DNA of 64,000 nt from an uncultured bacterium. GTDB lineage: Bacteria > Desulfobacterota > Deferrimicrobia > Deferrimicrobiales > Deferrimicrobiaceae. The notes below the pieces were generated by a model, which saw only the letters and a list, made by a program, of their open reading frames with translations, did not search any database and had not been told where the DNA came from. Within the stretch, counting starts at the first letter, position 1, and each line of letters begins with the position of its first letter. The position numbers were made by a program, and so were the translations under genes. This document shows, piece after piece, positions 8,161 to 60,527 of this stretch. Location: the NCBI GenBank assembly GCA_963741515.1, contig CAVUIA010000001.1:323767-387766 (forward strand), in the 5' to 3' direction.

Positions 8161-8176
8161 GGCTTCTCCCGGACGG

Positions 8177-19965: not shown

Positions 19966-19999
19966 CAACTGTCCTTGTTTTTATACAATCGGATTGGCC

Positions 20000-36800: not shown

Positions 36801-37774
36801 TTTCCCTTCGCCCCCTTCCCGCCGCGCGCCTTTCCGGCGGCCAGCGGGTGCGCCTTCTCGTACATGCCCACCAGGTGAGACACGTCGACCCGGGCGTACC
36901 TCTGCGTCGTCGAGAGGGAGGCGTGCCCGAGCATCTCCTGGATCGCGCGCAGGTCGGCGCCCGACTCGAGGAGGTGCGTCGCGAAGGAGTGCCGGATCCC
37001 GTGGGGCGAAAGGTGGCGCCGCGCCCCCGGGCCGTTCCCGACCGCCTCCGACAGCATCCTCGCCACGCTGCGCGCCGAGATCCCCGCGCCGGATTTCCGC
37101 CCCACCTTCCCCCGCTGGTTCAAAAAGAGCGGCTCGTCGATGGCGCTGCGGAAATCGCCCCCCTGCGCCGCCGGGCGGACGGCCAGGTAGCCGCGCAGCG
37201 CGCGGACGGCCTTTTCCCCGACGGGGACCACCCGGACCTTCCTCCCCTTGCCCGTGACGCGGACCGTCCCGCCGTCGAGGGAAACGTCGCGCATCCTCAA
37301 GGACACGAGCTCCCCGACCCGCAGCCCCGAGGAGTAGAGCAGCTCGAGGATCGCGAGGTTCCGCTTCGACACCGGGTCGTCCGCCGGGAGGGAGGAGAGG
37401 AAGCCCGCCATCTCGTCCACCGGGAGGAACTCCGGGAGCCGCATCGACCTGCGGGGGGCGGACAGCCCGGACGCGGGGTTGGTCCGCACCTCCCCCACCT
37501 CGACGAGGAACGAAAAGAACGTGCGCACCGCGGAGAGCCGCCTGCAGACCGTCGAGGATTCGCGCCCGGGAAGCGACGAGGACAGGAACCGCCTCAGGTC
37601 GGCGGTGGAGACGAACCGCCAGCCGTCGCCGCCGTCGGGGTCTTTCCCCGCGGTCTCCACGAGGTGGTCCCGCAGCGCCCGGACCTCCCGGAGGTAGGCG
37701 CGGACGGTCTCCTTCGACGCGTTCCGTTCCGCCTCGAGAGACTTCCCGAACCGGCTGACAGCCCCACCGTCCAC
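36797..37774 (-). CDS. xerC: tyrosine site-specific recombinase XerC/XerD
   Basis: Intact 325-aa ORF with the R...HxxR...Y catalytic set ([24 protein letters not shown]). xerC-hslV-hslU synteny. Confidence 0.85.
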
Positions 37775-37868
37775 CGTGGCGTTTCCCCCGAAATGTAAAA
37801 GAGTTTTGTAACACTCAACGGGCCAGAATTCAAGCCGGAGGGCCGCGGTCCCCGGGCGGGAAGCGGTG

Positions 37869-39181
37869 TCAGATCAGCGCGGACGCGAATTTCCGGGCCG
37901 CGTCGAGGGCGACCTCCGCCTTCCGTTCCTTCCGTTCCTTCTTCCGGCGCACGGCCATCTCGGGGAGCAGGCCGAAGTTGGCGTTCATCGGCTGGGACGG
38001 CCCGGACCCGGGGGCGGTGATGTGGGCCATCAGCGCGCCGATCATGGACTCCGGCGGGAAGGGGGCCGGCTCCTTTCCGAAGGCGCGCGCCGCGGCGGAC
38101 ACCCCCGCGACCAGCCCCGAGGCGATCGATTCCACGTACCCTTCCACCCCGGTGATCTGCCCCGCGAAGAACAGCCCCGGCCGGCCGCGGAACTCCATGC
38201 AGGGCGTCAGGCAGCGCCGGGCGTCGATGAAGCTGTTGCGGTGGACCGAGCCGTACCGCAGGAACTCGGCGTTTTCCAGCCCCGGGACGAGGGAGAAGAC
38301 CCTCTTCTGCTCCGGGTACGTCATCCGCGTCTGGAAGCCCACGAGGTTGAACATCGTGCCTTCCGCGTTCTCCTTCCGCAGCTGCAGGACCGCGTGGGGG
38401 ATCCTCCCCGTTCGCGGGTCGGGGAGCCCCACGGGCCGCAGCGGCCCGAAGAGCAGCGTCTCGGGGCCGCGCCGGACGATCTCCTCCACCGGCATGCATC
38501 CCTCGAAGTACCTGGGCTCCTCGAATTCCCGCAGCGGCACGGTCTTCGCCGACAGGAGCGCGGCGAAGAACGCCTCGTACCGCTCCCGGTCCATGGGAAG
38601 GTTGAGATAGTCTCCCGTCCCCACGCCGTACCGGTCCGCGACGTACCCCGCGCCCGGGCCGATCGTCGCGGCGTCCACGATGGGGGAAATGGCGTCGTAG
38701 AAGTAGAAGCCGTCCTCGCCGATCAGCGCCGCGGATCGCCGAGGCGATGGCCTCGCTGGCGAGCGGGCCGCACGCCAGCACGACGAGCGGCGCGTCCGGG
38801 ATCCCGGTCGCCTCCTCCTCGAAGACCCGGATGCCGGGGGCGGACCGCACGGCCTCCGTCACCCGCGCGCGCGAACCGCTCCCGGTCCACCGCCAGCGCC
38901 TTGCCCGCGGGCACCCTCGCCGCGTCGGCGATCGGGAGCAGCGCCGACCCCAGGATCCGCAGCTCCTCCTTCAGCAGCCCCTTCCCGGAGACGACCTCCT
39001 CCGAGCCCAGGGAGTTGCTGCACACGAGCTCCGCGAACCAGCCCGTGCGGTGCGCCTCCGTCCGTCCGCCGGGGCGCATCTCGAACAGGTCCACGCCCAG
39101 CCCCGCGCCCGCGAGCTTCAGGGAAGCCTCGGACCCGGCGAGCCCGGCGCCCACGACCGTCACCCGGGCCCGCTCAGGCAT
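37869..39181 (-). CDS. trmFO: methylenetetrahydrofolate-tRNA-(uracil-5-)-methyltransferase TrmFO (one frame shift near 38700)
   Basis: N-terminal FAD Rossmann motif ([12 protein letters not shown]) and the conserved C-terminal body lie in two frames. Confidence 0.85.
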
Positions 39182-40859
39182 CTTCGGCCGCTTCCGGCTC
39201 CCTCCTTCTCCGCGATCGGGAAGAAAACGGAGAAGGTGCTCCCCTGCCCGGGGTGGGAGCGGGCCTCGATGAATCCCTTGTGGTGGTGCACGATCCGCTG
39301 GGAGATCGAGAGGCCGAGCCCCGTGCCCCCCTCCTTCGTCGTGAAGAAGGGGTTGAAGATCTTCTCCAGGTTCTGCGGGTCGATCCCGACGCCCGAGTCG
39401 GAGACCGTCAGCACGGCGTACCGGGTGCCGTGCCGGATCTGCTCGAAGGCGTCCACGATGATGCGGCCCCCCGGCGGCGTCGACTGCACCGCGTTGCGGA
39501 CCAGGTTCCAGACCACCTGCTTGAGCTGCGCGGCGTCTCCCTCGACCTCCAGCTCCTTCGTCGCCGCGTCCTCGATCAGGAGGTTTTTCTCCCTCCCCTC
39601 CCCGGTCCGTATGGCCCCCGCGACCTCGCGGAGGAGCGACGTCACCCGGACCCGGTCGACGCTCCGGATGGAGGTCCCCGTGTAGGAGAGGAAATCGGAG
39701 ATGAGGACGTTCAGCCGCTTGCTCTCCCGGTCGATGATCTCCAGGAGCGTGGCGGCGTCCTCCGGGACGTCGGGAGACTCGCGGAGGAGCTGGGAGGAGC
39801 CGGAGATGGAGGCGAGGGGGTTCCGGATCTCGTGCGCGAGCCCGGCGGCCATCTCCCCCACGCCGGCCAGGCGGTCGGCGATCCGCACGCGCTCCTCCAT
39901 CTGCTTGATGGGCGTCAGGTCCTGGAAGATGACCACGCGCCCGATGACGCCGCCGTCCGCGTCCCTCATCTGGGAGGCGGAGAACCCGAGGAAGATCTCC
40001 GTGCCGTCCGGCCGGACGAACCGGATCTCCGGGCGCGGCGCGGGCGGCTCGCCCCTCCGGGAGCGGTCCCCGTCGCCGTCGATCCCGCCGAGGATCTCCT
40101 GGAGCGGCCTGCCGGTCAGCTCGTCCGGCCCCACCCCGAGGATCGCGCACGCCGTGTCGTTATTGAGGGTGATCCTGCCTTCCAGGTCGGTCGTCAGGAT
40201 GCCGGAAGGGATGTTGTCGATCACGTTCTTGTGGAACGTCTCCAGCTTGCGGATCACCTCGTCCCGGTCCTGCACCCGCTCCATCCCCTTGCGGATGTCC
40301 TCCCCCAGCAGCCCCGAGAGGGCGCCGGTCAGGAAAAAGCCCGAGCAGTGGATGCCCGACGTGCGGAGGAACTGCGCCAGCGTGATCGTCGTTTCCTCGA
40401 AACCGGGCGGGGTGATGATCCTCTTCATCTGCAGGTAGATGAGGGTCGCGTAGGACACGGAGGAAAGCAGGGCCCACACGAGCGCCCCCTCCGGTAGCGC
40501 TCGAGGCTCCCGAGCAGGATCATCAGGACGTACATGAAGGAGAACACGCTCTCGATGCCGCCGGTGGCGAACACCAGGATCGAGATGAACCCCATGTCGA
40601 TCAGCGCCTGCACGTACGCGCCGACGTTCGGGAACTCCGTGCGCCCCCAGGCGGCGTACCGGAGCAGCAGCCACCCGTAGGACAGGAGGACCGCGAAATA
40701 GAGGTATTTGAACCCCGCGGACAGCAGCAGCTCCGGCTCGCGGAACTGCAGCGTCGCCACGGACGCCAGGAGCGCGAAGCTGATCCCCGACCGGACCAGG
40801 AGGAAATTGCGGCCCGCCTGTTCCTGCGCCCCGCGCCCCTCCGCGGGGACGGGAGGCAA
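39160..40859 (-). CDS. membrane sensor histidine kinase with a PAS domain (PilS-like), one frame shift near 40490
   Basis: N-terminal multi-TM region, PAS, HisKA (LAHEIRNPL) and HATPase_c (GTGLGLS). Lies directly downstream of pilC. Confidence 0.7.
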
Positions 40860-46473: not shown

Positions 46474-47142
46474 TCAATCCTTCTTCGCCAGCTCCTTGAG
46501 GAGGATCCTCTTCCCGTAGAGCGCGTTCTTCTGGACCAGCTTCTCCGCGAGGGCGGGGTCGCGCCTGCGGAACGCGTCGATGATCTCGACGTGCTGGTCG
46601 ATCGCCCCCTCGACCTTCCCCGGCATGGCGAGGATCAGCCGGTACCGCTGGAACTGCGCCACCATGGACTGCACGATCTGGTGGAGCCGCTCGTTCCCGG
46701 CGGCCCGGAGGAACGTGTCGTGGAACTCGTTGTGCAGTTCGAGGACCCTGCGCAGGTCCTTCTTCCCGGAGGCCGTCGTCATCTGCCGGTTGACCGTCTC
46801 CATCCGGTCGATCTCGCTCTCGGTGAGGGTCATCGTCGCCAGCCGCGCGGCGTACCCCTCGAGGATCATCTTCAGGTCGTAGAAGTTCGAGACGTCCTGC
46901 GCGGAGAAGGAGGCGACGATCGCCCCCTTCCGGGGGATGACGGAGATGAAGCCCTCGGTCTCCAGCTGGCGGAACGCCTCCCGGATGGGGGTGCGGCTGA
47001 TGCCGAACTTTTCGGCGAGCTCCGGCTCGGCGATGCGCGTCCCCGGCTTGAGCTGGCCGTTGATGATGGCGTTGCGGATCGAGGAGACGATCCGCTCGCG
47101 CAGGGTCAGGTGGCTGTCGATCCGGATTCTCAGCTTCTGCAA
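46474..47142 (-). CDS. GntR/FadR-family transcriptional regulator
   Basis: TTG start after a GGGAG element. N-terminal winged HTH (PELAEKFGISRTPIREAFRQLETEG) and an FCD domain. Confidence 0.8.
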   Translation of the reverse strand: MQKLRIRIDSHLTLRERIVSSIRNAIINGQLKPGTRIAEPELAEKFGISRTPIREAFRQLETEGFISVIPRKGAIVASFSAQDVSNFYDLKMILEGYAARLATMTLTESEIDRMETVNRQMTTASGKKDLRRVLELHNEFHDTFLRAAGNERLHQIVQSMVAQFQRYRLILAMPGKVEGAIDQHVEIIDAFRRRDPALAEKLVQKNALYGKRILLKELAKKD

Positions 47143-47176
47143 CGTCGCGCTCCCGGTTCCCGTCGGATCCTTTACG

Positions 47177-47188
47177 CATACAGTATAC
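47177..47188. promoter_or_regulatory. ATAC-a-GTAT palindrome in the divergent gntR / isomerase intergenic region (candidate operator)
   Basis: AT-rich intergenic stretch (47143-47242) with a GT-N-AC type inverted repeat between the gntR start and the next gene. Confidence 0.25.
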
Positions 47189-47242
47189 AAAAAACGGATG
47201 TCAAGGCGATTTTCCGCGGGCGGCCTTGCCCGAACCGCCCGG

Positions 47243-48049
47243 ATGAGGTATTTTTCTCCGATGGCCTGGGTCGTCCATTCCACCGTCCCCTTCCCCATGC
47301 TCCGCGACGCGGAGACGGTGCGGGCCCTGCGCGACGCCGGCGTGGGGCCGGAGATCTACTTCTCCGGCGCCGACCTCGACGCGCTCGCCCCGGCGGAGGC
47401 GGAACGCACGGCCGCGGCCCTCCGGGAGGCGGGGATCTCCTCCCTCACCTTCCACGCCCCGTTCCACGACGTCTGGCCCGGCGCCCACGACGAGGAAGCC
47501 CGGCGGTTCGCCGTCCGCCGCGTCTCGCAGGCGATCGCCCTCGCCCCGGTCTTCCGCCCCGGGGGCGTGGTGGTCCACGGCGGGTATTTCCCCTGGCTCT
47601 TCGACTTCCGCCCGGGCGATTGGCTCGCGTCCGCGAGGCGCTCCTTCGGGGAGCTCGCCGAAGCCGCGGAGAAGGCCGGCACGCGGCTGTTCGTCGAGAA
47701 CGTCTTCGACGACGACCCCGCGCACCTGCTCCGCCTGCGGGAGGCGGTCGGGTCGCCGCGCCTCGTTTTCTGCCTCGACCCCGGGCACGCGGCCCTCTTC
47801 TCCCTGGTGCCGGTCCACCTTTGGGCGGAGGCCTTCGGCGAAGGCACCGGCCTGATGCACGTCCACGACAACCGCGGAACGCGGGACGACCACCTGCCTG
47901 TAGGGGAAGGGACCATCAACTACCGTGGGGTGCTCCTGGCGGCGATCGACGCCGGCGCCCGCCCCATCCTCACGGTGGAACCGCACCGGAGGGAGCACTT
48001 CACGCGGAGCGTTTCGGCCCTGCGCGGAATCCTGTCTACGCTTCCCTGA
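47243..48049 (+). CDS. sugar phosphate isomerase/epimerase (xylose isomerase-like TIM barrel)
   Basis: The conserved part of track ORF 46937..48049 begins at MRYFSPMAW. An alternative ATG lies at 47261. Confidence 0.7.
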   Translation: MRYFSPMAWVVHSTVPFPMLRDAETVRALRDAGVGPEIYFSGADLDALAPAEAERTAAALREAGISSLTFHAPFHDVWPGAHDEEARRFAVRRVSQAIALAPVFRPGGVVVHGGYFPWLFDFRPGDWLASARRSFGELAEAAEKAGTRLFVENVFDDDPAHLLRLREAVGSPRLVFCLDPGHAALFSLVPVHLWAEAFGEGTGLMHVHDNRGTRDDHLPVGEGTINYRGVLLAAIDAGARPILTVEPHRREHFTRSVSALRGILSTLP

Positions 48050-48416
48050 ACCTGTCCTCCGCCGCCCCCGAGAGGAATTCCAGCGCCTCCGTTTCCGTTT
48101 CGAACGACTGCACGTATTTCGTGAGGCCGGTCACCTGGAACAGGTCCTTGTTGAGGCGGTTGACCTCGCAGAACGCCAGCCGTCCCTGCTCCTCCATCAC
48201 CTTTTCCACGACCCCGATGATGAACGATATGCCGATGCTGTTGACCATGCGCGTCTGCCCGAAGTTCAGGAGGAGGTGACGGGCGCCGCCGCCGATCTTC
48301 GCGCCGACGATCTTCTCGACCTCTTCTCCGAGCGAGCTGTTGAGGTATCCTCCGATGTGAACCACGAGCGTCCTGCCGTCGTCCCTGACGTCCACTTTCA
48401 TCTCTGAGAGGCTCAT
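48036..48416 (-). CDS. STAS-domain anti-sigma-factor antagonist
   Basis: Intact 126-aa ORF of SpoIIAA/RsbV type with a conserved Ser/Thr region (NSIGISFIIG). Confidence 0.8.
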   Translation of the reverse strand: MSLSEMKVDVRDDGRTLVVHIGGYLNSSLGEEVEKIVGAKIGGGARHLLLNFGQTRMVNSIGISFIIGVVEKVMEEQGRLAFCEVNRLNKDLFQVTGLTKYVQSFETETEALEFLSGAAEDRFREA

Positions 48417-50749
48417 TCCTTTTCAGGGGGTGCGGCCCCCTCCTCCTTTCCGTGCGCGGTCTCGTTCCCTGCCTGTCCGCTTTCGAGGAACTTGACCATG
48501 TGCACCACCGTACCGTCCAGACCCGTGTCGATCTCCACCTCGTCCACCAGCTCCCGGATCAGCTTCAGCCCCCACCCGCGGTTCTTCTTCGACTCGCCCC
48601 GCGTCGACGACTGGAACCCCTTCCCGTCGTCCTGGACGAACAGCTCGAGCTTCCCCGGGGACAAAAGGTAGCGCAGGCGGACCTTCCCCGAGGAGGCGGA
48701 GCTGTGCTCGAACGCGTTGATGCACGCCTCGATGATCGCCATCTTGATGCGGTCCACCGTGTCGGCGTCGACCGCGGCGAAGGCCGCCACCGTCTCGGCC
48801 ACGCGGGCGGCGACCATCTCGGAGTCGGCCTTCATGGGAAGGACCAGCTCGTACTCCACCGTCTTGTCCGAAGGCGCCGGCTGGGCGGAGGCCTGCCGCT
48901 CGGGTTCCGGGGCCTCCCCCAGCTCCTCGAGGCCGAAGAGGTTCAGGAACAGCCGCAGCTGCGACGGGTGGGACAGGTGGACGCCGTATTGCGCCGCAAG
49001 GTCGACCGCGGCCGGGTCGGCCGACTCGCTCAGGAGCATCCACTTCCGGAAGCGGTCCGCCGGGAGCCCCTTCTCGATGGCCAGGAGCCGGCACCGGTTC
49101 TCGAAATGCTCCACGGCCCGCGCCGCCAGGTTCTTTTCCGGGACCACGTCGACCGCCCAGACGACCAGGTTCTCCTCGGAGAACTCCCCTTCGGCGAAGC
49201 CGTACGCCACCAGGTCGAAGTCGAAGCGGGGTCCCCCCCTCTGGTTCCGGTACCCCGTGGACACGGAGGAGATCTTCGGGAGGCGGGTCCGCAGCGGCTC
49301 GCTTTCCATGCCGATGACGACCTCGAGCACCCCCTTCCGGTCGAACTTCTCCCGGAACGGGCCGTACTCGAACAGGAGCGTCGGCACTTCCCGGAGGTCC
49401 CACCGCCGCATCAGCTCCTTCACCACGGAAATGCGCCGCGCGTGGCCCTCCCCCTGCCCGGCTTCCGCGGCCGTGCGCGAGATCCGGGACTGCACGATGG
49501 CCGACGCCACCTGCGACACGCCCTTCCCGAGGAGGCCGCGCTCGTACGCCCAGTACAGGAAGTCGGTCAGCACGGGGTCGTCGACGAAGGTGAGCTGCTC
49601 CAGGTCGGACTTCAGCAGCCCCTTGAACTCCAGCTGCGTGAGGATCGCCTCGCCCTCTTCCTGCGAGGTCCCCATCAGCGACAGCGCCCCCTCGACCGTG
49701 TCGAGGGGGAACCGGTCGTACATGACGCGCTTCAGGAACCGGATCGCCCTGCCGCGGCGGGTCCGGGTGGGGAAGGCGTTCTCGAAGAACTCCCTCCAGT
49801 AGCGGTTCAGCTTCCCCTGCGTCACCGAGGCGGCGTACAGGTTCTCCAGGGTGATCGAGTCCGCCACCCGGGTGTTGCGGAAGAAGATGTCCTCGGCCAG
49901 CAGCCGCTGGTAGAACGGGATCCCGCCGACCCGCTCCGTGGCGCGCGGGAGCAGGGAGGGCGCGACCTCGACCTTCCGCCGCCCGCACAGCTTCTCCCAC
50001 AGGAGCCGCGACGCGTCGGCCTTCAGGCCGCGGATCTCGAGCATCTGGAAGGCGCCGTACAGCCCTTCCCTCTTCAGGGCGGCGGTCACCCGCCCCGGGG
50101 AGGAACCGGAAAGGAACATCGCGAACCGGCCGCTCTTGATGTAGGGGCGCAGGATGGAAAGCATGGTCCCTTCGGGCACGCCCTGCAGCTTCCCCGTGTA
50201 CTGGAAGTCGTCGAGCAGGAAAACGGGATAGAAGGAGCCGCCGCAGGACGCGAACGGGAGGGAAACCGCGTTGACGAGGGCGGAGAGGCCGTCCCCCGCG
50301 GCGGTGTATTTTGCGTGGGCCGCCATGGGGGCCCGGCATCCGGAGAACCCGTAAGCGGCGAGCCGCTCGCACATCTCGTCCGGGTCGAACACCGGCGGGT
50401 GCTCGTCGCCGAAGAACCGGAGCAGCTGCCCCAGGTACTCCTGCAGGAAATGCTGGGAGAGCGCCAGCGGGTGCGAGAGGATCTGGCTGAAGGAGAAATA
50501 GAAGGGGAACGGCCGCGGGGACGCGGGCGCCGCGGGGTCCGCAGCGGCCGAGGCCAGGATCTCCTCCCGCACCTTGAGGAGGAGCATGGTCTTCCCGATG
50601 TTCGGCGGGCCGTAGATCATGAAGGAGGAGCCGACGCCGCGCCCTCCCTCGATCGCCGCCCTCGTAAGGGCCGAAAGCTCCTCTTCCCGGCCGAAGAAAT
50701 CCTCGTCCCGGAAGGTGGCCTCCGCCCCCATGGTGCCGAAAAGACGCAC
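48413..50749 (-). CDS. AAA/Arch_ATPase-type P-loop NTPase fused to an RsbW/SpoIIAB-like GHKL kinase domain
   Basis: Intact 778-aa ORF. N-terminus FFGREEELSALTRAAIEGG...MIYGPPNIGKTMLL. C-terminus AIIEACINAFEHS...VRLRYLLSPGKLELFVQDDGKGF...GWGLKLIRELVDEV. Its stop overlaps the STAS gene start. Confidence 0.7.
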   Translation of the reverse strand: MRLFGTMGAEATFRDEDFFGREEELSALTRAAIEGGRGVGSSFMIYGPPNIGKTMLLLKVREEILASAAADPAAPASPRPFPFYFSFSQILSHPLALSQHFLQEYLGQLLRFFGDEHPPVFDPDEMCERLAAYGFSGCRAPMAAHAKYTAAGDGLSALVNAVSLPFASCGGSFYPVFLLDDFQYTGKLQGVPEGTMLSILRPYIKSGRFAMFLSGSSPGRVTAALKREGLYGAFQMLEIRGLKADASRLLWEKLCGRRKVEVAPSLLPRATERVGGIPFYQRLLAEDIFFRNTRVADSITLENLYAASVTQGKLNRYWREFFENAFPTRTRRGRAIRFLKRVMYDRFPLDTVEGALSLMGTSQEEGEAILTQLEFKGLLKSDLEQLTFVDDPVLTDFLYWAYERGLLGKGVSQVASAIVQSRISRTAAEAGQGEGHARRISVVKELMRRWDLREVPTLLFEYGPFREKFDRKGVLEVVIGMESEPLRTRLPKISSVSTGYRNQRGGPRFDFDLVAYGFAEGEFSEENLVVWAVDVVPEKNLAARAVEHFENRCRLLAIEKGLPADRFRKWMLLSESADPAAVDLAAQYGVHLSHPSQLRLFLNLFGLEELGEAPEPERQASAQPAPSDKTVEYELVLPMKADSEMVAARVAETVAAFAAVDADTVDRIKMAIIEACINAFEHSSASSGKVRLRYLLSPGKLELFVQDDGKGFQSSTRGESKKNRGWGLKLIRELVDEVEIDTGLDGTVVHMVKFLESGQAGNETAHGKEEGAAPPEKE

Positions 50750-50836
50750 GTCTACCGTTGCCTCCCGACAGGGATCTTCCCGGTAATCTACCCCGAAACC
50801 GTTGCGTTTTCATCAATATAATGGGATTTATCTATA

Positions 50837-53800
50837 GTGATGACGCGGATCCCCCCATCCATACGGAAGCCGTCCCGGTACAGCGGGAGCGAAATCCGCC
50901 CCGCGCTGATTCCCTGGGAAGACGCCAAAACGCGCGTCCTGCTTGCGTTTCCCGACGCGTACGAGATCGGGATGTCCCACCTGGGGATCCTCCTGCTCCA
51001 CGAGATCCTCAACGCGCGGCCCGGGACGCTCTGCGAGCGCGTCTTCGCCCCGTGGACCGACTACGCGGAGCATCTGCGCGCCTCGGGGGAGCCGCTCCCG
51101 TCGCTCGAGTCGGGGCGCCCGGCCGGCTCCTTCGACATGGTCGGGTTCTCCCTCTGCTACGAGCTCACCTACACCAACGTCCTCATGATGCTGGAATTGG
51201 CGGGGATCCCGCTCCTGTCGAAGGACCGGGGCGAGGGGCATCCCCTGGTCGTCGGGGGGGGCGTCTGCACGCTGAACCCCGCCCCCGTCGCCCCCTTCTT
51301 CGACGCCCTCCTCGTGGGGGACGGCGAAGAGGCGGCGCTGGAGATCGTCTCCGCCGTCGAGGAGCGCAAGGCGAAGGGAGGGTCCCGCGCCGACCTGCTG
51401 GCGACGCTCGCCGGGATCGCCGGCGTGTACGTGCCGGGGGTCTCCATGGGCGTCTCCCGCCGGGTGCTGCCCGACCTCGCCCTCTCGCCGCTGCTGCCCG
51501 CGCCCATCCTCCCGTCGATGCGCGTGGTGCACGACCGGCTGAGCATCGAGATCTCCCGCGGCTGCACCCGGGGCTGCCGGTTCTGCCAGGCCGGCTACGC
51601 GTACCGGCCGGTGCGGGAGCGCGACCCGCTCGCGGTGCTGGCCTACCTGCAGGAAAGCGCCCCCAAGACGGGGTACGACGAGGTGGGGCTCCTGTCGCTC
51701 TCGGCCGCCGACTACAGCTGCATCGACCGGCTCGTCACCGAGGCGATGGACGCGCTGGCCCCGGACCACGTCTCCCTTTCGCTCCCGGCGCTGCGGCTGG
51801 ACGCCCTGACGGAGAACACGGTCGAGCAGCTCCGCAAGGTGCGCAAGTCGGGGTTCACGCTGGCGCCCGAGGCGGGGACGGAACGGCTGCGCCGCTCCGT
51901 GAACAAGGACATCCTCGACGACGACGTCCTCAAGACGGCGGAGTGGATCTTCGGGAACGGCTGGCAGACCCTCAAGCTCTATTTCATGGTGGGGCTCCCC
52001 GGCGAGACGAGCGAGGACGTGCGCGCCATCGGCCTGCTGGCGAAGCGGGTCGCCGCGGTCGCCCGGCGCAAGGGGAAGCGCTGCTCCGTCACGGTGAGCG
52101 TCTCCCCGTTCGTCCCGAAGCCGCACACGCCGTTCCAGTGGGAGCGCCAGGCCGGGCGGGACGAGATGCACGAGCGGATCCGGATCGTGCGGGACGCCCT
52201 CGGGCGGGAGCGGAACGCGGAGCTGAAGCACGCCTCGCCGGAGGTTTCCGAGCTGGAGGGCGTCTTCTCGCGCGGCGACGGCCGCCTCCCTTCGGTCATC
52301 CTTTCGGCGTACCGCAACGGGGCGCGGTTCGACGCGTGGACGGAGGAATTCCGCCCCGAGGCGTGGAGCCGGGCCTTCGCGGAGGCCGGCATCGACCCGC
52401 TCGAATACCTGAAGGAACGCGACCCGGCCGCCCCGCTCCCCTGGGACGTCGTCGACGCGGGCATCGACCGCGGCTTCCTGCTCGCCGAGCGGGAGAAGGC
52501 GCGGACCGGCGAGATCACCCCCGACTGCCGCTCCGCGGGATGCACCTCCTGCGGGGCGTGCCCGCCGGGGCTTTCGAACATAACGTACGCGGGCCGGCTG
52601 GCGGCGCCCTCCCCCGCCCCGGAGCCGGCGGCCCCCGCGCCGCCCGCGCCCTCCCCCCAGGCGCCGCCGCGGCGCCACGTCGTGCGGATCGCCTACGCCA
52701 AGGAGGGGCCGGCGAAATACCTGAGCGGCCTGGAGATCCAGTCGCTGTGGGGGCGCACTTTACGGCGCGCCGGGCTGCCGATCGCGTACAGCCAGGGGTT
52801 CAACCCCGCGCCGAAGCTTTCCCTCGGGCCGGCGCTGGCGGTCGGAACCGACAGCGGCTGCGAGTTCCTCGAGGCGGAGTTCACCCTTCCGGTCGTCGCC
52901 TCGGAGCTCCCGTCGATCCTGCCTCCGCACCTCCCCGCGGGCGTCCGCGTGATCGAGGCGAAGACGGTCCCGCCGGGCTCCCCGCGCATGTCCGACTACG
53001 ACCTGGCGTCCGACTACTCCCTGCGCCCGCTCCCCGGCTTCGCGCTCCCGGAAGGGATCACGCCTTCCCTGGCCGCGGAGCGGTTCGCCGCGTTCCGCGC
53101 CGCGCAAGCCTTTCCGCTGGCGCTCGTCCGCGAAGCGCAGGTGACCGAGGTGGACCTCCGCCCGCTGGTCGACGATTTCAAGGTGAATGCGGAGGGCATC
53201 TTCATTAAAATCATACAGGGCACGGGAAAAGGGGTGCGGCCGGCCGAGGCCGCCGCGGCGATCCTCGGCGTTCCGCTTTCGCCCGACCGGCTCGTCGTCA
53301 GGAAGGAATCGGCGGAGCCTGATCCCCCGCCCGGGAAAGACATGATGCAGAGACCCAGCAGGCACATCGTGGTGAACGCCGCGCCGTACGAGACGCGCGT
53401 GGCCACCCTCGAGTCCGGCGCCCTCGCGGAGCTGCTCATCGAACGGGGCGAGGACAAGAACTCCGTCGGCAACATCTACAACGGGAAGGTCATCCGGGTC
53501 CTGCCCGGCATGCAGGCCGCCTTCGTCGACATCGGCATGGACAAGGCGGGGTTCCTCTTCGCGGGCGACTTCGTCACCCCGCAGCTCGAGTTCGACACCG
53601 ACCCGGTCGAGGACCCCGGCCTCCCCGACGACATCGGCATCCGCCCGGCCCGCTACCCGCAGGACCATTTCCTCCCGCCGATCGAGGGGCTGATCCGCGA
53701 AGGGCAGCACCTCCTGGTCCAGGTCGCCAAGGAGCCGCTGGGGACGAAGGGCGCGCGGATCACCAGCCACATCACCCTGCCCGGCCGCCACCTGGTGCTC

Positions 53801-54874
53801 CTCACCTGGTCGAACCACATCGGGATCTCCCGGCGCATCGAGGACCCCGAGGAGCGGGACCGGCTGACGAAGATCGTCGAGTCGATCCGGCCCGAGGGGA
53901 TGGGCGCCATCGTCCGCACCGCCGCGGAGGGCGGCACCGAGGATTCGCTCCGGACCGACATGGACTACCTCGTCCGCCTGTGGGAGACGATCCGCAAGAA
54001 GAGCGAGAACGCCGCGGCCCCCGCCCTGATCCACCGCGAGCTCTCCCTTTCCATGCGCGCGGTGCGCGACCTGTTCTCCAGCGACTCGGACCGGATCGTG
54101 GTCGACTCCCCCGAGGAGCACACCCGGATCCGCGCGTTCGCCCAGCAGTTCTTCCCGCGCATCCTGGACAGGATCGAGCTGTACAACGGCCCCGAGCCCA
54201 TCTTCGACAACTACGGCATCGAGATCGAGGTGAACCGGGCGCTCGACAAGAAGGTGTGGCTCAAGAGCGGCGGGTACATCGTGATCGAGCAGACGGAGGC
54301 GCTCACCGTCGTCGACGTGAACACGGGGAAGTACGTCGGCCGCTCCTCGCTCGAGGACACGACGGTCAAGATCAACCTCGAGGCGGTCAAGGAGATCGTC
54401 TACCAGCTGCGGCTGCGCAACATCGGCGGGATCATCATCATCGACTTCATCGACATGAAGAGCGAGGAGAACCGCGAGAAGGTGTACAACGCCCTCGTCG
54501 ACGCGCTGGTGGCGGACCGCAGCAAGACGACGATCTGCAAGATCTCGGAGCTCGGGCTGGTCGAAATGACCCGGAAGCGCGTCCGGGAGAGCCTGGGGCG
54601 CTCCCTCTCCGAGGGCTGCCCCTACTGCTCGGGCGAAGGCGTCATCAAGTCGAAGAAGACGATCTGCTACGACATCTTCCGCGCCCTCGAGCGCCAGAGC
54701 CTGCTCCTGTCGGGCCGGCAGGTGTCGCTGTACGTCCACCCCGCCCTCGCCGAGGAGCTGTTCGGGGAGGAGCGCCGGTTCCTCGAGATCCTCGAGCAGA
54801 AGTTCGGCATGAAGGTGAACATCTCGGCGTCCGAGAAGTTCCACATCGAGCAGTACCGGATCGAGCCGAGCTGA
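50837..54874 (+). CDS. single 1345-aa ORF fusing a radical SAM domain, a DUF2344-like domain and an RNase E/G-family ribonuclease
   Basis: CTRGCRFCQAGY radical-SAM cluster (residues about 1-600), then HVVRIAYAKEGPAKYLSGLEIQSLWGRTLRRAGLP (DUF2344-like), then an S1 domain and RNase E/G catalytic core from MMQRPSRHIVVNAAPYETRVA. No stop in between. The first ATG is at 50840. Confidence 0.75.
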   Translation: MMTRIPPSIRKPSRYSGSEIRPALIPWEDAKTRVLLAFPDAYEIGMSHLGILLLHEILNARPGTLCERVFAPWTDYAEHLRASGEPLPSLESGRPAGSFDMVGFSLCYELTYTNVLMMLELAGIPLLSKDRGEGHPLVVGGGVCTLNPAPVAPFFDALLVGDGEEAALEIVSAVEERKAKGGSRADLLATLAGIAGVYVPGVSMGVSRRVLPDLALSPLLPAPILPSMRVVHDRLSIEISRGCTRGCRFCQAGYAYRPVRERDPLAVLAYLQESAPKTGYDEVGLLSLSAADYSCIDRLVTEAMDALAPDHVSLSLPALRLDALTENTVEQLRKVRKSGFTLAPEAGTERLRRSVNKDILDDDVLKTAEWIFGNGWQTLKLYFMVGLPGETSEDVRAIGLLAKRVAAVARRKGKRCSVTVSVSPFVPKPHTPFQWERQAGRDEMHERIRIVRDALGRERNAELKHASPEVSELEGVFSRGDGRLPSVILSAYRNGARFDAWTEEFRPEAWSRAFAEAGIDPLEYLKERDPAAPLPWDVVDAGIDRGFLLAEREKARTGEITPDCRSAGCTSCGACPPGLSNITYAGRLAAPSPAPEPAAPAPPAPSPQAPPRRHVVRIAYAKEGPAKYLSGLEIQSLWGRTLRRAGLPIAYSQGFNPAPKLSLGPALAVGTDSGCEFLEAEFTLPVVASELPSILPPHLPAGVRVIEAKTVPPGSPRMSDYDLASDYSLRPLPGFALPEGITPSLAAERFAAFRAAQAFPLALVREAQVTEVDLRPLVDDFKVNAEGIFIKIIQGTGKGVRPAEAAAAILGVPLSPDRLVVRKESAEPDPPPGKDMMQRPSRHIVVNAAPYETRVATLESGALAELLIERGEDKNSVGNIYNGKVIRVLPGMQAAFVDIGMDKAGFLFAGDFVTPQLEFDTDPVEDPGLPDDIGIRPARYPQDHFLPPIEGLIREGQHLLVQVAKEPLGTKGARITSHITLPGRHLVLLTWSNHIGISRRIEDPEERDRLTKIVESIRPEGMGAIVRTAAEGGTEDSLRTDMDYLVRLWETIRKKSENAAAPALIHRELSLSMRAVRDLFSSDSDRIVVDSPEEHTRIRAFAQQFFPRILDRIELYNGPEPIFDNYGIEIEVNRALDKKVWLKSGGYIVIEQTEALTVVDVNTGKYVGRSSLEDTTVKINLEAVKEIVYQLRLRNIGGIIIIDFIDMKSEENREKVYNALVDALVADRSKTTICKISELGLVEMTRKRVRESLGRSLSEGCPYCSGEGVIKSKKTICYDIFRALERQSLLLSGRQVSLYVHPALAEELFGEERRFLEILEQKFGMKVNISASEKFHIEQYRIEPS

Positions 54875-57345: not shown

Positions 57346-58172
57346 CTCTCCCCTCCCCCGCCGCCATCCCCCTGGAAATAATAGATGCCGACCCCCGCCC
57401 GCATTTTGCCCGTCCCGGCGACCCCGGGATGGAAGTCCCGGTCCTGCCGGCTCAACTCGCCGTCCAGATTTTCCAGGAGCTCCTGCGCCCGGGCCGCTGC
57501 GAGCGCCCTGAACCCGGGAAGCGCCTCGGAAGGAAGGTTGTCGTAGCAGACCTTCCTCTGGTAGAACAGGTCGCCCATTCGCTGGATGTTGTGGTCGATC
57601 GTCGATATCAGGTCCGCCGTGTCGACGCCCAGGATGCCGATCTTGTCGATCTCGCCGGTTTTCGGGATGTAGGACCGCTCGAGCAACCGCATGTTTCCTT
57701 CCTGCGTCCGCTCGACCGCCCCGAGTCTCAGAAGTTCATCGAGCACCGCCCGGGCGGGGGCGTCGCCGCTGTAGATCTTGACCAGTTCCCCGAAGCAGGC
57801 GGCATCCCCTTCGAACGGCAGCTCCATCGGCCGCCCCGATTCCCGATGGAACCGCGGGTCCCGCACCCAGCCGCCGATCACGCGCGCCGCCCGGTTGTAC
57901 CGTTCCGCAGCGCCCATATCGTCCGTGGGCGGCAGGCGCCTCACGCGCAGGACTTCCTTGCGCGACAGGCCGGTGATGATGGACACCCGCGATTTGGACT
58001 GCTTCCTTCCGGCGATTCCGAATTCCTCCTCCATGGCGACGTCCACGTATACCCGCTTCGCGAGATCGGAAAACGTCCGGTAAGGGATGCCGTTTCTCAG
58101 GAGGAGCCTTACCAGCGGGCGGAGCATGGTCGCGACGGCCGCCGATAAGGCCTGGGTGATTTTCGATTCCAT
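57342..58172 (-). CDS. hypothetical protein (276 aa), first gene of a three-gene operon with the two lipoproteins
   Basis: Intact ORF with normal composition and a possible N-terminal HTH-like stretch (RTFSDLAKRVYVDVAMEEEFGIAGRKQSKSRVSIITGLSRKEVLR). No confident family. Confidence 0.5.
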   Translation of the reverse strand: MESKITQALSAAVATMLRPLVRLLLRNGIPYRTFSDLAKRVYVDVAMEEEFGIAGRKQSKSRVSIITGLSRKEVLRVRRLPPTDDMGAAERYNRAARVIGGWVRDPRFHRESGRPMELPFEGDAACFGELVKIYSGDAPARAVLDELLRLGAVERTQEGNMRLLERSYIPKTGEIDKIGILGVDTADLISTIDHNIQRMGDLFYQRKVCYDNLPSEALPGFRALAAARAQELLENLDGELSRQDRDFHPGVAGTGKMRAGVGIYYFQGDGGGGGER

Positions 58173-58174
58173 AT

Positions 58175-58191
58175 TTGGGAATTTATTCCCA
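58175..58191. promoter_or_regulatory. 16-bp perfect palindrome TGGGAATTTATTCCCA immediately upstream of the start codon of the 57342-58172 gene
   Basis: Exact inverted repeat in the AT-rich divergent region shared with the tRNA-Thr promoter. Confidence 0.3.
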
Positions 58192-58320
58192 TTTTAAATC
58201 AGTGTCAACTATTAATAAACGGGCGATCGATCGCCTGCCCTTTCATTGCGGGGCGATTCCGGCTTGACTTTGTCCGACCGCCCTATCTATATTTATAAAT
58301 TCGCGAGTTACCGTTCGTGC

Positions 58321-58395
58321 GCCGGCGTAGCTCAGTGGTAGAGCAGCTGATTCGTAATCAGCAGGTCGTCGGTTCAATCCCGACCGCCGGCTCCA
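58321..58395 (+). tRNA. tRNA-Thr (anticodon CGU) with encoded CCA
   Basis: Cloverleaf read directly: acceptor GCCGGCG/CGCCGGC, D-arm GCTC-AGTGGTA-GAGC, anticodon stem GCTGA/TCAGC with loop TTCGTAA, T-arm GTCGG-TTCAATC-CCGAC, discriminator T, CCA. A TTGACT-N18-TATATT promoter-like motif lies upstream. Confidence 0.9.
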
Positions 58396-58505
58396 CGTTT
58401 TTCCCATGCCGATACGTGAGGGATTGAACCTACGCACAATCCCGATGGCCATGGATGGCCAAGTGCCGGCGCGGCCAGGGATGGCCACGGATCTTGTTGC
58501 GCCGG

Positions 58506-58521
58506 CCGACCGCCGGCTCCA
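58506..58521 (+). repeat. 16-nt direct repeat of the tRNA-Thr 3' end (CCGACCGCCGGCTCCA), 111 bp downstream of the tRNA
   Basis: Exact match to tRNA positions about 58380-58395. Signature of a former site-specific integration at the tRNA. Confidence 0.6.
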
Positions 58522-58532
58522 CTCCTGGTGGA

Positions 58533-58603
58533 GGACAGACTTCCCCTCCGCCCGTTATCGGTAAATCGAAGTCTGTCCCCTGCCGCCTCCCCTTCCCCTA
58601 TCG
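58533..58603 (-). repeat. hairpin-containing repeat element, copy B (inverted relative to copy A at 5134-5208)
   Basis: Same stem GGACAGACTTC/GAAGTCTGTCC. The loop is the reverse complement of copy A's loop with three substitutions. The flank CGATAGGGGAAGGGGAGGCGGCAGGGGAC resembles CGATATAGGCGTAGGCGGTTTCGGGGGAC. Confidence 0.5.
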
Positions 58604-58702
58604 TAATGCGATCCTGCGCCATCCTCGTGCGCGGGAAAATTGATATAATTTAAACATGGGGGAACGGAGGAGATCGGCCGCTTCGGGACGGAAGGAGGAC
58701 CA

Positions 58703-58912
58703 ATGCAAACATACGATGTTTACCGCGTGGACTATGCAAAGCATCAAAAGGTGCCGATGGGCAAGGTCGTCGAGCGAAGGAACAGGAAACGGCCGGACAA
58801 CGTCCTGGGACTGTTGAGAGTGGCGCGAAAGACTTTCGGCTGGAACCCGGACTATGACATGCATATCGTGCTCGATAAAAACGCCTTGAAGGATAACGAA
58901 AGGGCGGGGTGA
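58703..58912 (+). CDS. small hypothetical protein (69 aa)
   Basis: Strong AAGGAGG Shine-Dalgarno 7 nt before the ATG, normal composition (MQTYDVYRVDYAKHQKVPMGKVVERRNRKRPDNVLGLLRVARKTFGW...), terminator at the stop. Confidence 0.5.
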   Translation: MQTYDVYRVDYAKHQKVPMGKVVERRNRKRPDNVLGLLRVARKTFGWNPDYDMHIVLDKNALKDNERAG

Positions 58913-58928
58913 CCCGCCCTTTTTCTTT
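58902..58928. terminator. bidirectional rho-independent terminator (GGGCGGG-gtga-CCCGCCC, TTTTTCTTT on the plus strand, TTTCGTT on the minus strand)
   Basis: Perfect 7-bp GC stem with U-tracts on both strands between the convergent small genes 58703-58912 and 58932-59201. Confidence 0.6.
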
Positions 58929-58931
58929 GGA

Positions 58932-59201
58932 CTAGTAAGCCTCGGAATCCGCCCCCGGAACCGCCCCCGCACCTATCGCACCGCTTGCCTGCCAGCCCGC
59001 GCCGAACATGCTTCCCTCCGACCCGCTCTTTCCCATGGGGCCGACAGCGTAGTCCTTATACTGTTCGACCGCCTCCTGGTCCTGAAGGGTCCACGCCGGG
59101 TTTTCCGATGGATATCCTTCCGCCAGCGCGACACCGAAACCGACCGCCGCCCCCGCGATCAGAATTCCTGCGATAAACATCCCGACAATCGCCTTTTTCA
59201 T
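58932..59201 (-). CDS. small secreted or membrane-anchored protein (89 aa) with an N-terminal signal peptide
   Basis: MKKAIVGMFIAGILIAGAAVGFGVALAEG..., GGGGAGGGG Shine-Dalgarno, Gly/Ala-rich C-terminus. Confidence 0.5.
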   Translation of the reverse strand: MKKAIVGMFIAGILIAGAAVGFGVALAEGYPSENPAWTLQDQEAVEQYKDYAVGPMGKSGSEGSMFGAGWQASGAIGAGAVPGADSEAY

Positions 59202-59584
59202 GTTCGTCCCCTCCCCTGAAAGGGGTTCGATCCGGATTCCCTCCCTGTTCCTGAAAATTTAGGTTCGGGCCATCAGGGTGAAGTTTCCCGGCGGGAAAAA
59301 ATAGATGACTCGGCCAGCCGATTTCTGGAAATATTTTTCCCATTGTAGCGCGTTTCCATTTAACGCCATTGCATACTGACAACAATATCCCTTTTAAAAT
59401 GAATACTTACCTGGGACGGGATATTGGTGTAAATATTGCTTCGGTTGGAAAGACTGTTTATTTTTCTTCCGATCGGATGGTCTTTGATATTGATATCCAT
59501 TCCCGCAAGAGGGATAATTTGTTTGCGGCGATGCCTCGGTGACCAGGGTTGGTTCTCCACCTGGCTCGCTAACGAGATCGCCCA

Positions 59585-59642
59585 GGCGCTGAGTCAGTCC
59601 GATTCCCGCTTCACCTGACTGACCCGGCGCCACTTTTTCCCC
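59585..59642 (+). terminator. terminator-like hairpin plus T-tract about 80 nt upstream of the PEP-CTERM gene (possible attenuator or sRNA 3' end)
   Basis: GGCGC-tga-GTCAGTC...GACTGAC-ccg-GCGCC followed by ACTTTTTCCCC. It sits inside a roughly 500-bp AT-rich leader with no convincing ORF. Confidence 0.35.
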
Positions 59643-59720
59643 CTATTGGCGTGGATTGCTACAGGGCGTCGCGGCCACGGTCGCGGGAAATTAAACACAT
59701 TGCACGGTAAGGGGCAATAG

Positions 59721-59927
59721 ATGAAGAAAGCAGTTATCCTCTCGATATTTTACTTTGTGGTCTTGCTGCTGTCCTCGGTGCCGGCAATATCCGCGTTAAT
59801 AGCGGAAAACGACATATTGCGTGCGGGTTATTCCTTCCTCGTCCCGGAACCCTCCACGACGCTCATGCTGCTGGGGGGAGGACTGGTTGGATTGCTTGGA
59901 TATCGTCGCTGGAAGAGAATGACGTAA
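59721..59927 (+). CDS. very small PEP-CTERM-anchored protein (68 aa)
   Basis: Signal peptide MKKAVILSIFYFVVLLLSSVPAISA, a 16-aa core, then VPEP + TM helix + basic tail (LGYRRWKRMT*), the canonical exosortase sorting signal. Confidence 0.7.
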   Translation: MKKAVILSIFYFVVLLLSSVPAISALIAENDILRAGYSFLVPEPSTTLMLLGGGLVGLLGYRRWKRMT

Positions 59928-60070
59928 GCCACCCTTCCGCGCCATAGGACGAACACCGGTCTCACAAACAGACAAACAACGGTTCTCATTCAGGACAGGG
60001 GCCGATACCGGGAGGCGCCGGACAGCATTACTGTGATTCAAACGACTCGCCAGCCAGAAAGGCCGTGGTC

Positions 60071-60244
60071 ATGAGAAGATTTTTAGCGATCTGCATTCTG
60101 GCATCGGCATTCCTGTCCATACCTATGGCCGAGGCAGCTTTCACCACCTCCAACACGGCAGCGCCCGGACTCTCCACGCTGCTGCTCCTTGGGAGTGTAT
60201 TGGCGGGACTGTTTTGGAATCGTCGCAGGAGGAGAATGACGTAA
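60071..60244 (+). CDS. second tiny paralog (57 aa) with a degenerate PEP-CTERM-like tail
   Basis: Not in the ORF track (below 60 aa). MRRFLAICILASAFLSIPMAEA + AFTTSNTA + APG-LSTLLLLGSVLAGLF-WNRRRRRMT*. The 3' codons and downstream 12 nt (GAATGACGTAAGCCA) are nearly identical to the first gene. Confidence 0.5.
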   Translation: MRRFLAICILASAFLSIPMAEAAFTTSNTAAPGLSTLLLLGSVLAGLFWNRRRRRMT

Positions 60245-60333
60245 GCCATGGCTCTTCGGTAAAGGTGGGTTGCGATATTGCCGATAAGATGAGCGTGGGG
60301 TGGCTGACAAAATCGATGGCTACGGAGTAAGTC

Positions 60334-60507
60334 GTGAATATCTCATCTTCCCTGCTCGTTATATTCGTAATAATTGCACTTATAATCGCGGCTATACGGT
60401 TTTTAGTAAATAAACATCAAGCGACCGACAAACATATCCATGAGGAAAATAAGCGGATAATCATGAAAAACATGAAGCTGAAGAGGACCTGGATATCTAA
60501 ATATTAG
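60334..60507 (+). CDS. candidate small single-TM membrane protein (57 aa) in an AT-rich stretch
   Basis: GTG start after GGAG. SLLVIFVIIALIIAAIRFLV TM helix, then a Lys-rich tail. Start and frame were read by eye. Confidence 0.3.
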   Translation: MNISSSLLVIFVIIALIIAAIRFLVNKHQATDKHIHEENKRIIMKNMKLKRTWISKY

Positions 60508-60527
60508 AGATCACTGCAGGCCAACCC

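Follow-up and report, generated by a model that had tools for sequence, protein, structure and literature searches.

What does a partner-switching pair control when its kinase is built into a large NTPase? This question is raised by two overlapping genes in a 64,000-nucleotide (nt) stretch of DNA, hereafter the window, from an uncultured bacterium of the family Deferrimicrobiaceae (contig CAVUIA010000001.1, positions 323,767 to 387,766). The first gene encodes a protein of 778 amino acids (aa), hereafter the fusion protein, in which an AAA+ NTPase module precedes a C-terminal RsbW-type serine kinase domain; the second encodes a STAS protein of the anti-sigma-antagonist type. Partner switching is textbook sigma-factor control, and outputs other than sigma factors are known from only a few systems, such as SiaABCD, HsbA-HsbD, SypA/E and BtrVW. 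With moderate confidence, we propose that the fusion protein and its STAS neighbor form a partner switch that does not serve a sigma factor, was ancestrally tied to the turnover of cyclic di-GMP (c-di-GMP), and is present in the window in a reduced form whose target is encoded in trans. All functional statements made below are drawn from sequence, predicted structure and gene context.

A kinase fusion gene and its STAS partner

Both open reading frames (ORFs) on which the original prediction for this DNA was built are present, as is the 4-nt overlap between them.

48413..50749, minus strand: fusion gene, 778 aa (AAA+ NTPase, winged helix, dead nuclease fold, RsbW-type kinase), identified from its ORF, codon composition, Pfam matches, homologues and AlphaFold2 model
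48036..48416, minus strand: STAS gene, 126 aa, single-domain, anti-sigma-antagonist type, identified by PF01740 and SpoIIAA (1th8_B)
48413..48416, minus strand: ATGA stop/start overlap of the fusion and STAS genes, seen in the sequence; in most loci the genes either overlap or directly adjoin each other
48237..48239, minus strand: codon of STAS Ser60 in the motif N-S-I-G, predicted phospho-acceptor from alignment with the DSSG motif of SpoIIAA
50750..50836, no strand: divergent intergenic region of 87 nt, with the Shine-Dalgarno sequence GGGAGG at 50761..50766

The fusion gene ends in GAA AAG GAA TGA and the STAS gene begins, in another frame, with ATG AGC CTC, the 4 nt held in common being the usual arrangement for (predicted) translational coupling. 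The GC content of the window is 65-70%, and several equally long ORFs overlie the fusion gene. A 797-aa ORF and a 789-aa ORF on the other strand were rejected as GC artefacts, and the 778-aa frame is genuine because its GC content at codon position 3 (GC3) is 0.94 vs 0.44 at position 2, it carries Pfam domains, and it has more than 100 full-length homologues. An artefactual gene fusion or a misassembly is ruled out by the presence of the same ~765-aa architecture on more than 100 independent contigs. Translation starts at a GTG at 50749, 11 nt downstream of the Shine-Dalgarno sequence; the residues MRLFGT that this start adds are kept in homologues, and one database gene call for the protein begins at Met7, giving 772 aa. 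The 87-nt region upstream of the fusion gene yielded no match to the sigma-70 consensus, and terminator-like matches were found only at chance level.

The C-terminus of the fusion protein had been predicted to be an RsbW/SpoIIAB-like GHKL kinase, and several lines of evidence confirm this assignment. HATPase_c_2 (PF13581) matches residues 647-753 with 75.3 bits against a cutoff of 27.4 (E = 5.6e-21), and the N box (E674/N678/H682, ExxxNAxxH), the G1 box (D707/G709/G711, DDGKGF) and the G2 box (G725-W-G-L728, RGWGL) are canonical, with little or no variation across the clade. Moreover, the Bergerat fold of the domain superposes on RsbW and SpoIIAB, and its nearest solved structures and sequence families are RsbW, SpoIIAB and UsfX. 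Thus, the two features on which the original prediction had staked itself, the N, G1 and G2 boxes at the C-terminus and a P-loop NTPase at the N-terminus, are both found.

The STAS protein matches PF01740 (E = 4.6e-9, 36.5 vs a cutoff of 22.6) and scores 46.7 against a cutoff of 53.45 with the NCBIfam model ant_ant_sig (TIGR00377); its best solved relatives are SpoIIAA proteins (1th8_B, E = 5.8e-10). Ser60 aligns with the leading serine of DSSG in SpoIIAA, the established phospho-acceptor, and it is at this aligned residue that the engineered chain 1tid_B departs from wild-type 1th8_B. Among 77 STAS ORFs found beside family members, 75 have N-S-[IV]-G and one has N-T-V-G, the remaining one not aligning. 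As judged by these alignments, the STAS protein has retained the serine at which the partners of SpoIIAB and RsbW are phosphorylated by these kinases. A gene encoding a xylose-isomerase-like TIM barrel (AP_endonuc_2; 46937..48049, plus strand) is convergent with the STAS gene, and the 3′ ends of the two overlap by 14 nt.

Gene neighborhoods and the predicted output

With respect to the output of the pair, the most informative evidence comes from gene neighborhoods across the family. A scan of GTDB species-representative genomes, with a 20-sequence alignment sharing EACINAFEH as the query (a 58-sequence superfamily alignment was too divergent), gave 472 tblastn-confirmed matches, the best 80 of which supplied the genome loci; three of these 80 match the kinase domain only. 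Neighbors were counted with hidden Markov models (HMMs) for the STAS, downstream and upstream proteins on six-frame ORFs, in loci with enough flanking DNA, and the members were classed by identity to the window protein:

Class A (at least 70% identity): STAS directly downstream in 15/15, GAF-HD-GYP after STAS in 0/13, PocR-GAF-GGDEF directly upstream in 0/10
Class B (44-66% identity): STAS directly downstream in 17/18, GAF-HD-GYP after STAS in 8/17, PocR-GAF-GGDEF directly upstream in 0/14
Class C (below 35% identity): STAS directly downstream in 41/52, GAF-HD-GYP after STAS in 29/42, PocR-GAF-GGDEF directly upstream in 27/40

A STAS gene hence lies directly downstream of the fusion gene in 73 of the 85 judgeable loci, always in the order kinase fusion, then STAS, which across genomes upholds the prediction of a kinase-STAS pair of the partner-switching type. 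Over all classes, a GAF-HD-GYP gene follows the STAS gene in 37/72 loci. The GAF-HD-GYP proteins have complete HDxGK and HHExxxGxGYP motifs, and the representative of the upstream PocR-GAF-GGDEF proteins that was inspected has the motif GGEEF. Furthermore, unbiased clustering of all neighbors confirmed the HD-GYP and GGDEF proteins as the top recurrent partners and revealed neither a PP2C phosphatase nor a sigma factor.

We therefore hypothesize, from this comparative genomic evidence, that the ancestral context was a c-di-GMP turnover operon comprising a PocR-GAF-GGDEF cyclase, the fusion kinase, the STAS protein and a GAF-HD-GYP phosphodiesterase. The kinase domain would bind the unphosphorylated STAS protein and phosphorylate it on Ser60; the phosphorylation state would set the freedom of the STAS protein to bind a third protein, such that unphosphorylated STAS switches between the kinase and that third protein. 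Given the ancestral operon, the third protein is most likely a c-di-GMP enzyme, for which the SiaABCD and HsbA-HsbD systems of Pseudomonas are precedents. The AAA+ module would act as a built-in nucleotide-dependent switch or oligomerization scaffold that sets kinase activity, that is, as an input rather than an output. By analogy, the best functional counterpart of the family-wide operon context is SiaABCD of Pseudomonas aeruginosa, in which the cyclase SiaD, a c-di-GMP enzyme rather than a sigma factor, is controlled by a kinase with its phospho-acceptor protein and a PP2C phosphatase (PMC7647112, PMC8457831). Unlike the fusion protein, SiaB is a small stand-alone kinase; the operon also encodes the PP2C protein SiaA, SiaD is a diguanylate cyclase, and neither HD-GYP nor AAA+ is present. 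The window differs further from SiaABCD in that no c-di-GMP enzyme is adjacent to the pair.

The kinase could alternatively be a classical anti-sigma factor, sequestering an alternative sigma factor encoded elsewhere that the STAS protein releases as RsbV and SpoIIAA do. The closeness of the kinase domain to RsbW, SpoIIAB and UsfX is compatible with such a role, and some switches are encoded apart from their sigma factor. Nevertheless, no sigma factor and no PP2C phosphatase was found among the fusion-locus ORFs annotated or scanned, in agreement with the statement of the original prediction that no sigma factor is adjacent; the recurrent, conserved neighbors are other genes, namely those of c-di-GMP enzymes. 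Furthermore, the scores of the kinase domain are far under the cutoffs of the NCBIfam equivalogs for RsbW (49.8 vs 145 and 43.2 vs 155) and SpoIIAB (34.2 vs 135). In these respects, as well as in the order kinase then STAS, the pair departs from RsbW-RsbV and SpoIIAB-SpoIIAA of Bacillus (6m36, 1th8, 1l0o), and its kinase occupies just the last ~150 of 778 aa, in a protein with an additional ATP site of the AAA+ type. Thus, we consider sigma-factor control improbable for this family.

The nearest stand-alone relatives of the kinase domain bear on its origin and on the role of the HD-GYP protein. Three loci (L087-L089) encode stand-alone 145-aa kinases that are 41-44% identical to the window kinase domain, and in all three a STAS gene follows. 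A GAF-PP2C gene comes third in L087 and L088, giving a canonical kinase-STAS-GAF-PP2C operon, and L089 has a partial third ORF with no Pfam match. Since the nearest stand-alone kinases sit in such operons, the kinase domain of the fusion protein appears to descend from genuine partner switches. The N-terminal half of the L088 GAF-PP2C protein matches the HMM of the HD-GYP proteins at 6e-25, whereas the upstream cyclases reach only 3e-10 to 3e-6 with their GAF domains. In the fused family, HD-GYP thus takes the place in the operon that belongs to PP2C in the nearest classical systems.

Conceivably, then, the GAF-HD-GYP protein could be the phosphatase of the phosphorylated STAS protein, or a functional substitute for it, rather than the output, with the phosphatase of the window clade acting in trans. 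Besides the shared operon position, this would accord with the lack of any PP2C in the fused-family neighborhoods scanned and with the chemistry of HD domains, which are metal-dependent phosphohydrolases. We regard it as very improbable, however: the GAF similarity comes from one locus, L088, and was not seen in L087; protein-phosphatase activity is not known to us from any HD-GYP protein; the full HD-GYP signature is typical of c-di-GMP phosphodiesterases; and the upstream GGDEF cyclase fits a role in c-di-GMP turnover better.

Several other features of these neighborhoods were observed. In L088 (Thermoanaerobaculia/Acidobacteriota; 2347-5920), two tandem stand-alone kinase-STAS pairs flank one GAF-GAF-PP2C gene, and in L087 and L089 a sigma-54 activator is encoded upstream. 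An ORF of ~200 aa ('LTLDFSGVGIIDFSCADE...GEYGEKYL') overlaps the start of the fusion gene in three loci of one distant clade (L004, 7412-8005; L005, 4655-5260; L042, 2052-2771), at the site taken up by the cyclase in other clades. This ORF is without a Pfam match and by eye resembles a STAS-like fold without the phospho-serine, followed by a winged-helix tail. Considered as a relative of PocR, it proved unrelated to the PocR part of the cyclases. An AP_endonuc_2 gene is found near the module in 31 loci, two distant clades included (e.g., L001, L007, and L009), and the hrcA-grpE-dnaK/J heat-shock operon directly flanks the kinase-STAS-HD-GYP module in several distant lineages (L004, L007, L038 and L042).

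Anatomy of the fusion protein

Sequence profiles and an AlphaFold2 model show that the 778-aa protein holds two separate ATP sites, one in an Arch_ATPase-type AAA+ module and the other in the RsbW-type GHKL kinase. The model, built with 27 homologues, has a mean predicted local distance difference test score (pLDDT) of 78.7, and with a full-length predicted template modeling score (pTM) of 0.57 the arrangement of the domains relative to each other is uncertain. The following parts can be delineated:

49880..50710, minus strand: AAA+ P-loop core and lid of the Arch_ATPase/ATPase_2 type, residues ~14-290
50588..50611, minus strand: Walker A, GPPNIGKT, residues 47-54; G47, P49, G52 and K53 invariant in the 27-sequence clade alignment
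50207..50224, minus strand: Walker B, VFLLDD, residues 176-181; D180 and D181 invariant in the same alignment
49532..49858, minus strand: helical region and winged-helix-like unit, residues ~298-406, from the AlphaFold2 model
48917..49291, minus strand: domain of the PD-(D/E)xK restriction-endonuclease fold, residues ~487-611, catalytic motif not conserved
48488..48859, minus strand: RsbW/SpoIIAB-type GHKL serine kinase domain with N, G1 and G2 boxes, residues ~631-754

The first 550 residues had been assigned as a whole to an Orc1/Cdc6-like NTPase of the Arch_ATPase type. A P-loop NTPase with its lid and a winged helix (helices 352-359 and 363-375, strands 379-382 and 385-388 in the model) does extend to about residue 410, followed by linker helices at residues 411-482, but residues ~487-611 form a separate, dead nuclease fold. 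Likewise, the core, lid and winged helix with Walker A and B are closest in fold to solved Arch_ATPase/ATPase_2 members, the structures 2qen and 2fna aligning with the fusion protein over 309-327 residues, but Orc1/Cdc6 initiators are not the closest match by fold or profile. At the sequence level, AAA_16 matches residues 18-183 barely above its cutoff (35.6 vs 32.6); the window protein is below the cutoff of ATPase_2/Arch_ATPase (PF01637; 20.6 vs 33.2), which is passed by the distant family members P0134 (43.4) and P0163 (48.9). The NACHT model is below its cutoff in the window protein, NB-ARC is absent from its scan, and no C-terminal repeat sensors are apparent. Pfam searches with residues 290-480 and 440-615 gave no match, and the nuclease fold was recognized solely by structure prediction. 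In this domain the window clade has D512 and D534 with no lysine at +2, other clades are devoid of the acidic residues, and the domain is wholly missing from one class of family members.

The fold matches of the fusion protein include STAND and Avs proteins as well as the CRISPR-ancillary nucleases Can2 and Card1, and on this basis the pair could be viewed as an anti-phage defense module that combines a STAND-like NTPase, a nuclease-fold effector and a kinase in the manner of Avs or other NTPase-effector systems. This is extremely improbable. PADLOC returned zero families for either protein at E <= 0.1, the active site of the nuclease fold is not conserved, and the fusion gene is tightly coupled to STAS and c-di-GMP enzymes. 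Moreover, in dozens of species-level genomes it lies not in variable islands but in conserved housekeeping synteny (radical SAM/RNase G, GntR, SelA, AroE, and PilB).

Spread and age of the fusion

A word-indexed search detected 128 proteins of at least 46% identity, nearly all of ~765 aa and with the same domains, from metagenome-assembled genomes (MAGs) of Deltaproteobacteria, Thermodesulfobacteriota and Candidatus Deferrimicrobiaceae. In an exhaustive HMMER search with the non-kinase part (residues 1-625), 180 matches were found among 1.84 billion representatives at E <= 0.001. The distant matches of this part (20-27% identity) belong to two classes, of ~740 aa and ~550 aa. In the scan of GTDB genomes, the distant clades fall in Thermodesulfobacteriota, Brocadiaceae, Rokubacteriota and Acidobacteriota. 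All eight complete distant members that were scanned end in HATPase_c_2, and in two of the eight ATPase_2 exceeds its curated cutoff. Because relatives at 20-27% identity also carry HATPase_c_2, the kinase-NTPase fusion can be considered ancient, and it is evidently rare. No free-standing close relative of the N-terminal module was detected, the matches being fusions or fragments. Current database labels for the fusion protein are limited to 'ATP-binding protein' or 'RsbW'.

The ATP sites have not been retained uniformly. The Walker A lysine is lost only in the Acidobacteriota clade, where the loci without an adjacent STAS gene all have GxS or GxT at Walker A and keep the kinase boxes and the upstream cyclase; NTP hydrolysis is therefore likely to be dispensable for the function of the protein of that clade. 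In L066, the G1 and G2 boxes are degenerate and STAS is lost, and some members of the short class have lost all kinase boxes.

A proposed reduced version in the window

The window clade is Candidatus Deferrimicrobium/Deferrimicrobiaceae of candidate phylum MBNT15 (PMC9386147). One side of the pair is occupied by a divergent radical-SAM/RNase G gene and the other by the convergent AP_endonuc_2 gene, GntR, HNH, AroE and pilB/T/C/S, with arginine and lysine biosynthesis genes further out; this synteny is common to the whole clade, and in sister lineages the HD-GYP gene lies between the STAS and AP_endonuc_2 genes. A Pfam scan of 44 window ORFs revealed neither a sigma factor nor a PP2C; five of these ORFs had no Pfam match, and several gaps were left unresolved. 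One ORF matched by the cyclase HMM (5870..7117) was rejected, as it encodes a double-GAF protein without GGDEF and not a cyclase. In the window sub-clade, Walker A and B and all kinase boxes are canonical, and class A is under purifying selection, with omega of ~0.24-0.31 for the fusion gene and 0.14-0.46 for the STAS gene, as rough Nei-Gojobori estimates from stop-to-stop ORFs in a genome with strong codon bias.

We suggest that this sub-clade retains a reduced version of the system, in which the adjacent HD-GYP gene would have been lost and the cyclase was never seen; the target and the phosphatase would be encoded elsewhere and act in trans. Several observations weigh against a c-di-GMP-linked switch of this kind. 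HMM searches of all six-frame ORFs detected neither an HD-GYP nor a GGDEF domain in the 64-kb window. About half of the Deferrimicrobia loci have no HD-GYP gene, yet the kinase-STAS pair persists in them, and the adjacent HD-GYP protein is therefore not the only function of the pair. A metagenome scan with a class B HD-GYP protein found close orthologues only beside the fusion and STAS genes and in no other context, although divergent copies could be missed by the exact peptide patterns that it uses; because close orthologues occur only there, this weakly favors loss over relocation of HD-GYP in the window sub-clade. In addition, adjacency gives no direction, and the c-di-GMP enzymes could equally be inputs; moreover, the scanned locus ORFs yielded no PP2C that would account for a reversible switch. 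A large part of the shared gene order is seen inside one lineage at a time and may reflect inheritance, not selection. Because peptide patterns of the kinase served to collect the 80 genome loci, these are biased to members with an intact N box and kinase boxes, and every host is an uncultured MAG.

A different reading stays close to the original prediction that STAS phosphorylation controls an ATPase-driven output: in it, the kinase and the STAS protein would be a switch in cis, gating an ATP-driven machine that acts on DNA or protein through the winged helix and the nuclease fold. The main argument for it is the fusion itself. The ATPase fold is that of switch and initiator ATPases (Arch_ATPase, STAND, and Orc1/Cdc6), no free-standing close relatives of the module were detected, and in the window sub-clade, which has neither of the c-di-GMP neighbors, the ATP sites are nonetheless canonical and under purifying selection. 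As against this, the Acidobacteriota clade has dispensed with the Walker A lysine while keeping the kinase boxes, the nuclease-fold domain has no conserved active site and is missing from one whole class, and no substrate can be proposed. Furthermore, the most conserved neighbors of the family are enzymes with an output chemistry of their own, and these c-di-GMP enzymes, not the ATPase, are therefore indicated as the wiring. In the form originally predicted, an ATPase output was not supported, and we consider it rather unlikely; for the window sub-clade it is a viable, though still unlikely, reading that the module of AAA+, winged-helix and nuclease-fold domains is the regulated effector, which would make it a new class of STAS-controlled ATPase. 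Our preferred reading accordingly remains a partner switch derived from c-di-GMP turnover, with the AAA+ module on its input side.

Relation to known systems

HsbR of P. aeruginosa combines a receiver and a PP2C domain with its kinase and, unlike the fusion protein, is not known to have an AAA+ NTPase. The HsbR-HsbA-HsbD system resembles the family described here in that the STAS anti-anti-sigma protein HsbA binds the cyclase HsbD (PMC5085249) and the kinase is part of a multidomain protein; it differs in that its input is a phosphorelay and HsbA also acts on anti-sigma factors. Rv1364c of Mycobacterium tuberculosis (3ke6) and SypE of Vibrio fischeri (PMC10120452) similarly are larger signaling proteins with an embedded RsbW-type kinase that acts on a STAS protein or domain, but there the kinase is combined with PP2C, PAS, receiver or STAS domains, and neither an AAA+/STAND-type NTPase nor a nuclease fold is present. 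The archaeal Arch_ATPase (PF01637) proteins PABY2304 (2qen) and SSO1545 (2fna) are ~350-aa stand-alone proteins of unknown function without a kinase; the window protein, as noted, is below the PF01637 cutoff. In contrast to STAND NTPases (NB-ARC, CED-4/Apaf-1, MalT, and Avs), the fusion protein appears to have no C-terminal repeat sensors, and a protein kinase, with a STAS protein as its own predicted substrate, takes the part of the effector.

The individual parts, that is, the RsbW-type kinase, STAS, the Arch_ATPase AAA+ and the PD-(D/E)xK fold, are thus established, as are non-sigma, c-di-GMP partner switches and multidomain RsbW-like kinases. What appears to be undescribed is, first, a kinase of this type joined to an AAA+/STAND-like NTPase that carries a dead nuclease fold and, second, the recurrent operon of cyclase, kinase fusion, STAS and HD-GYP with HD-GYP at the PP2C position. 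A literature search on the fusion or on the STAS/HD-GYP link found no description of the fusion architecture.

Other features of the window

Apart from the pair and its neighbors, several regions of the window deserve mention.

50837..54874, plus strand: radical-SAM protein (Radical_SAM_N2, Radical_SAM, DUF2344) and RNase G in one 1345-aa ORF
5870..10738, minus strand: the double-GAF protein (5870..7117), a small Arf/Ras-like GTPase match (7118..7927; 26.7 vs 22.3 bits) and an EF-Tu-type GTPase (9464..10738)
38700..40859, minus strand: PilS, intact only as an N-terminal 6TM_PilS ORF (40425..40859), with 13 stops further in frame
36797..38678, minus strand: XerC/D-type tyrosine recombinase (36797..37774) adjoining a 269-aa ORF
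19934..21631, plus strand: 565-aa protein with an ADP-ribosylglycohydrolase domain at residues 252-539, in its C-terminal half only
58000..62000: GC content 0.55-0.56 vs 0.65-0.71 elsewhere, with a Sel1-repeat protein (60820..61542, minus strand) and few convincing ORFs

The 1345-aa ORF could be a real lineage-specific fusion or an effect of read-through or assembly; in L001 and L003, the radical-SAM protein and RNase G come from separate genes (~820-840 aa and ~510 aa) that adjoin or overlap. The sensor kinase part of PilS may be frameshifted, or the choice of frame may be wrong; the ORFs tried in the 38.7-40.4 kb gap gave no Pfam match. The 269-aa ORF matches only the C-terminal half of GIDA/TrmFO (profile positions 213-390) and may be truncated or mis-started. 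The low-GC region may be acquired DNA.

Implications

The present analysis corrects an annotation, in that the label 'RsbW' implies a control of sigma factors that the genomic context of the family does not support. It also adds to the known partner switches an architecture with two ATP-consuming modules per polypeptide, an AAA+ switch and a GHKL kinase, and a recurring association in operons with a diguanylate cyclase as well as an HD-GYP phosphodiesterase, conserved over at least four phyla of mostly uncultured anaerobes. To our knowledge, the regulation of HD-GYP proteins by protein partners is little understood. If the wiring proposed here is correct, the family would offer a tractable system for the control of HD-GYP proteins by protein partners and for AAA+/STAND-like gating of a protein kinase.

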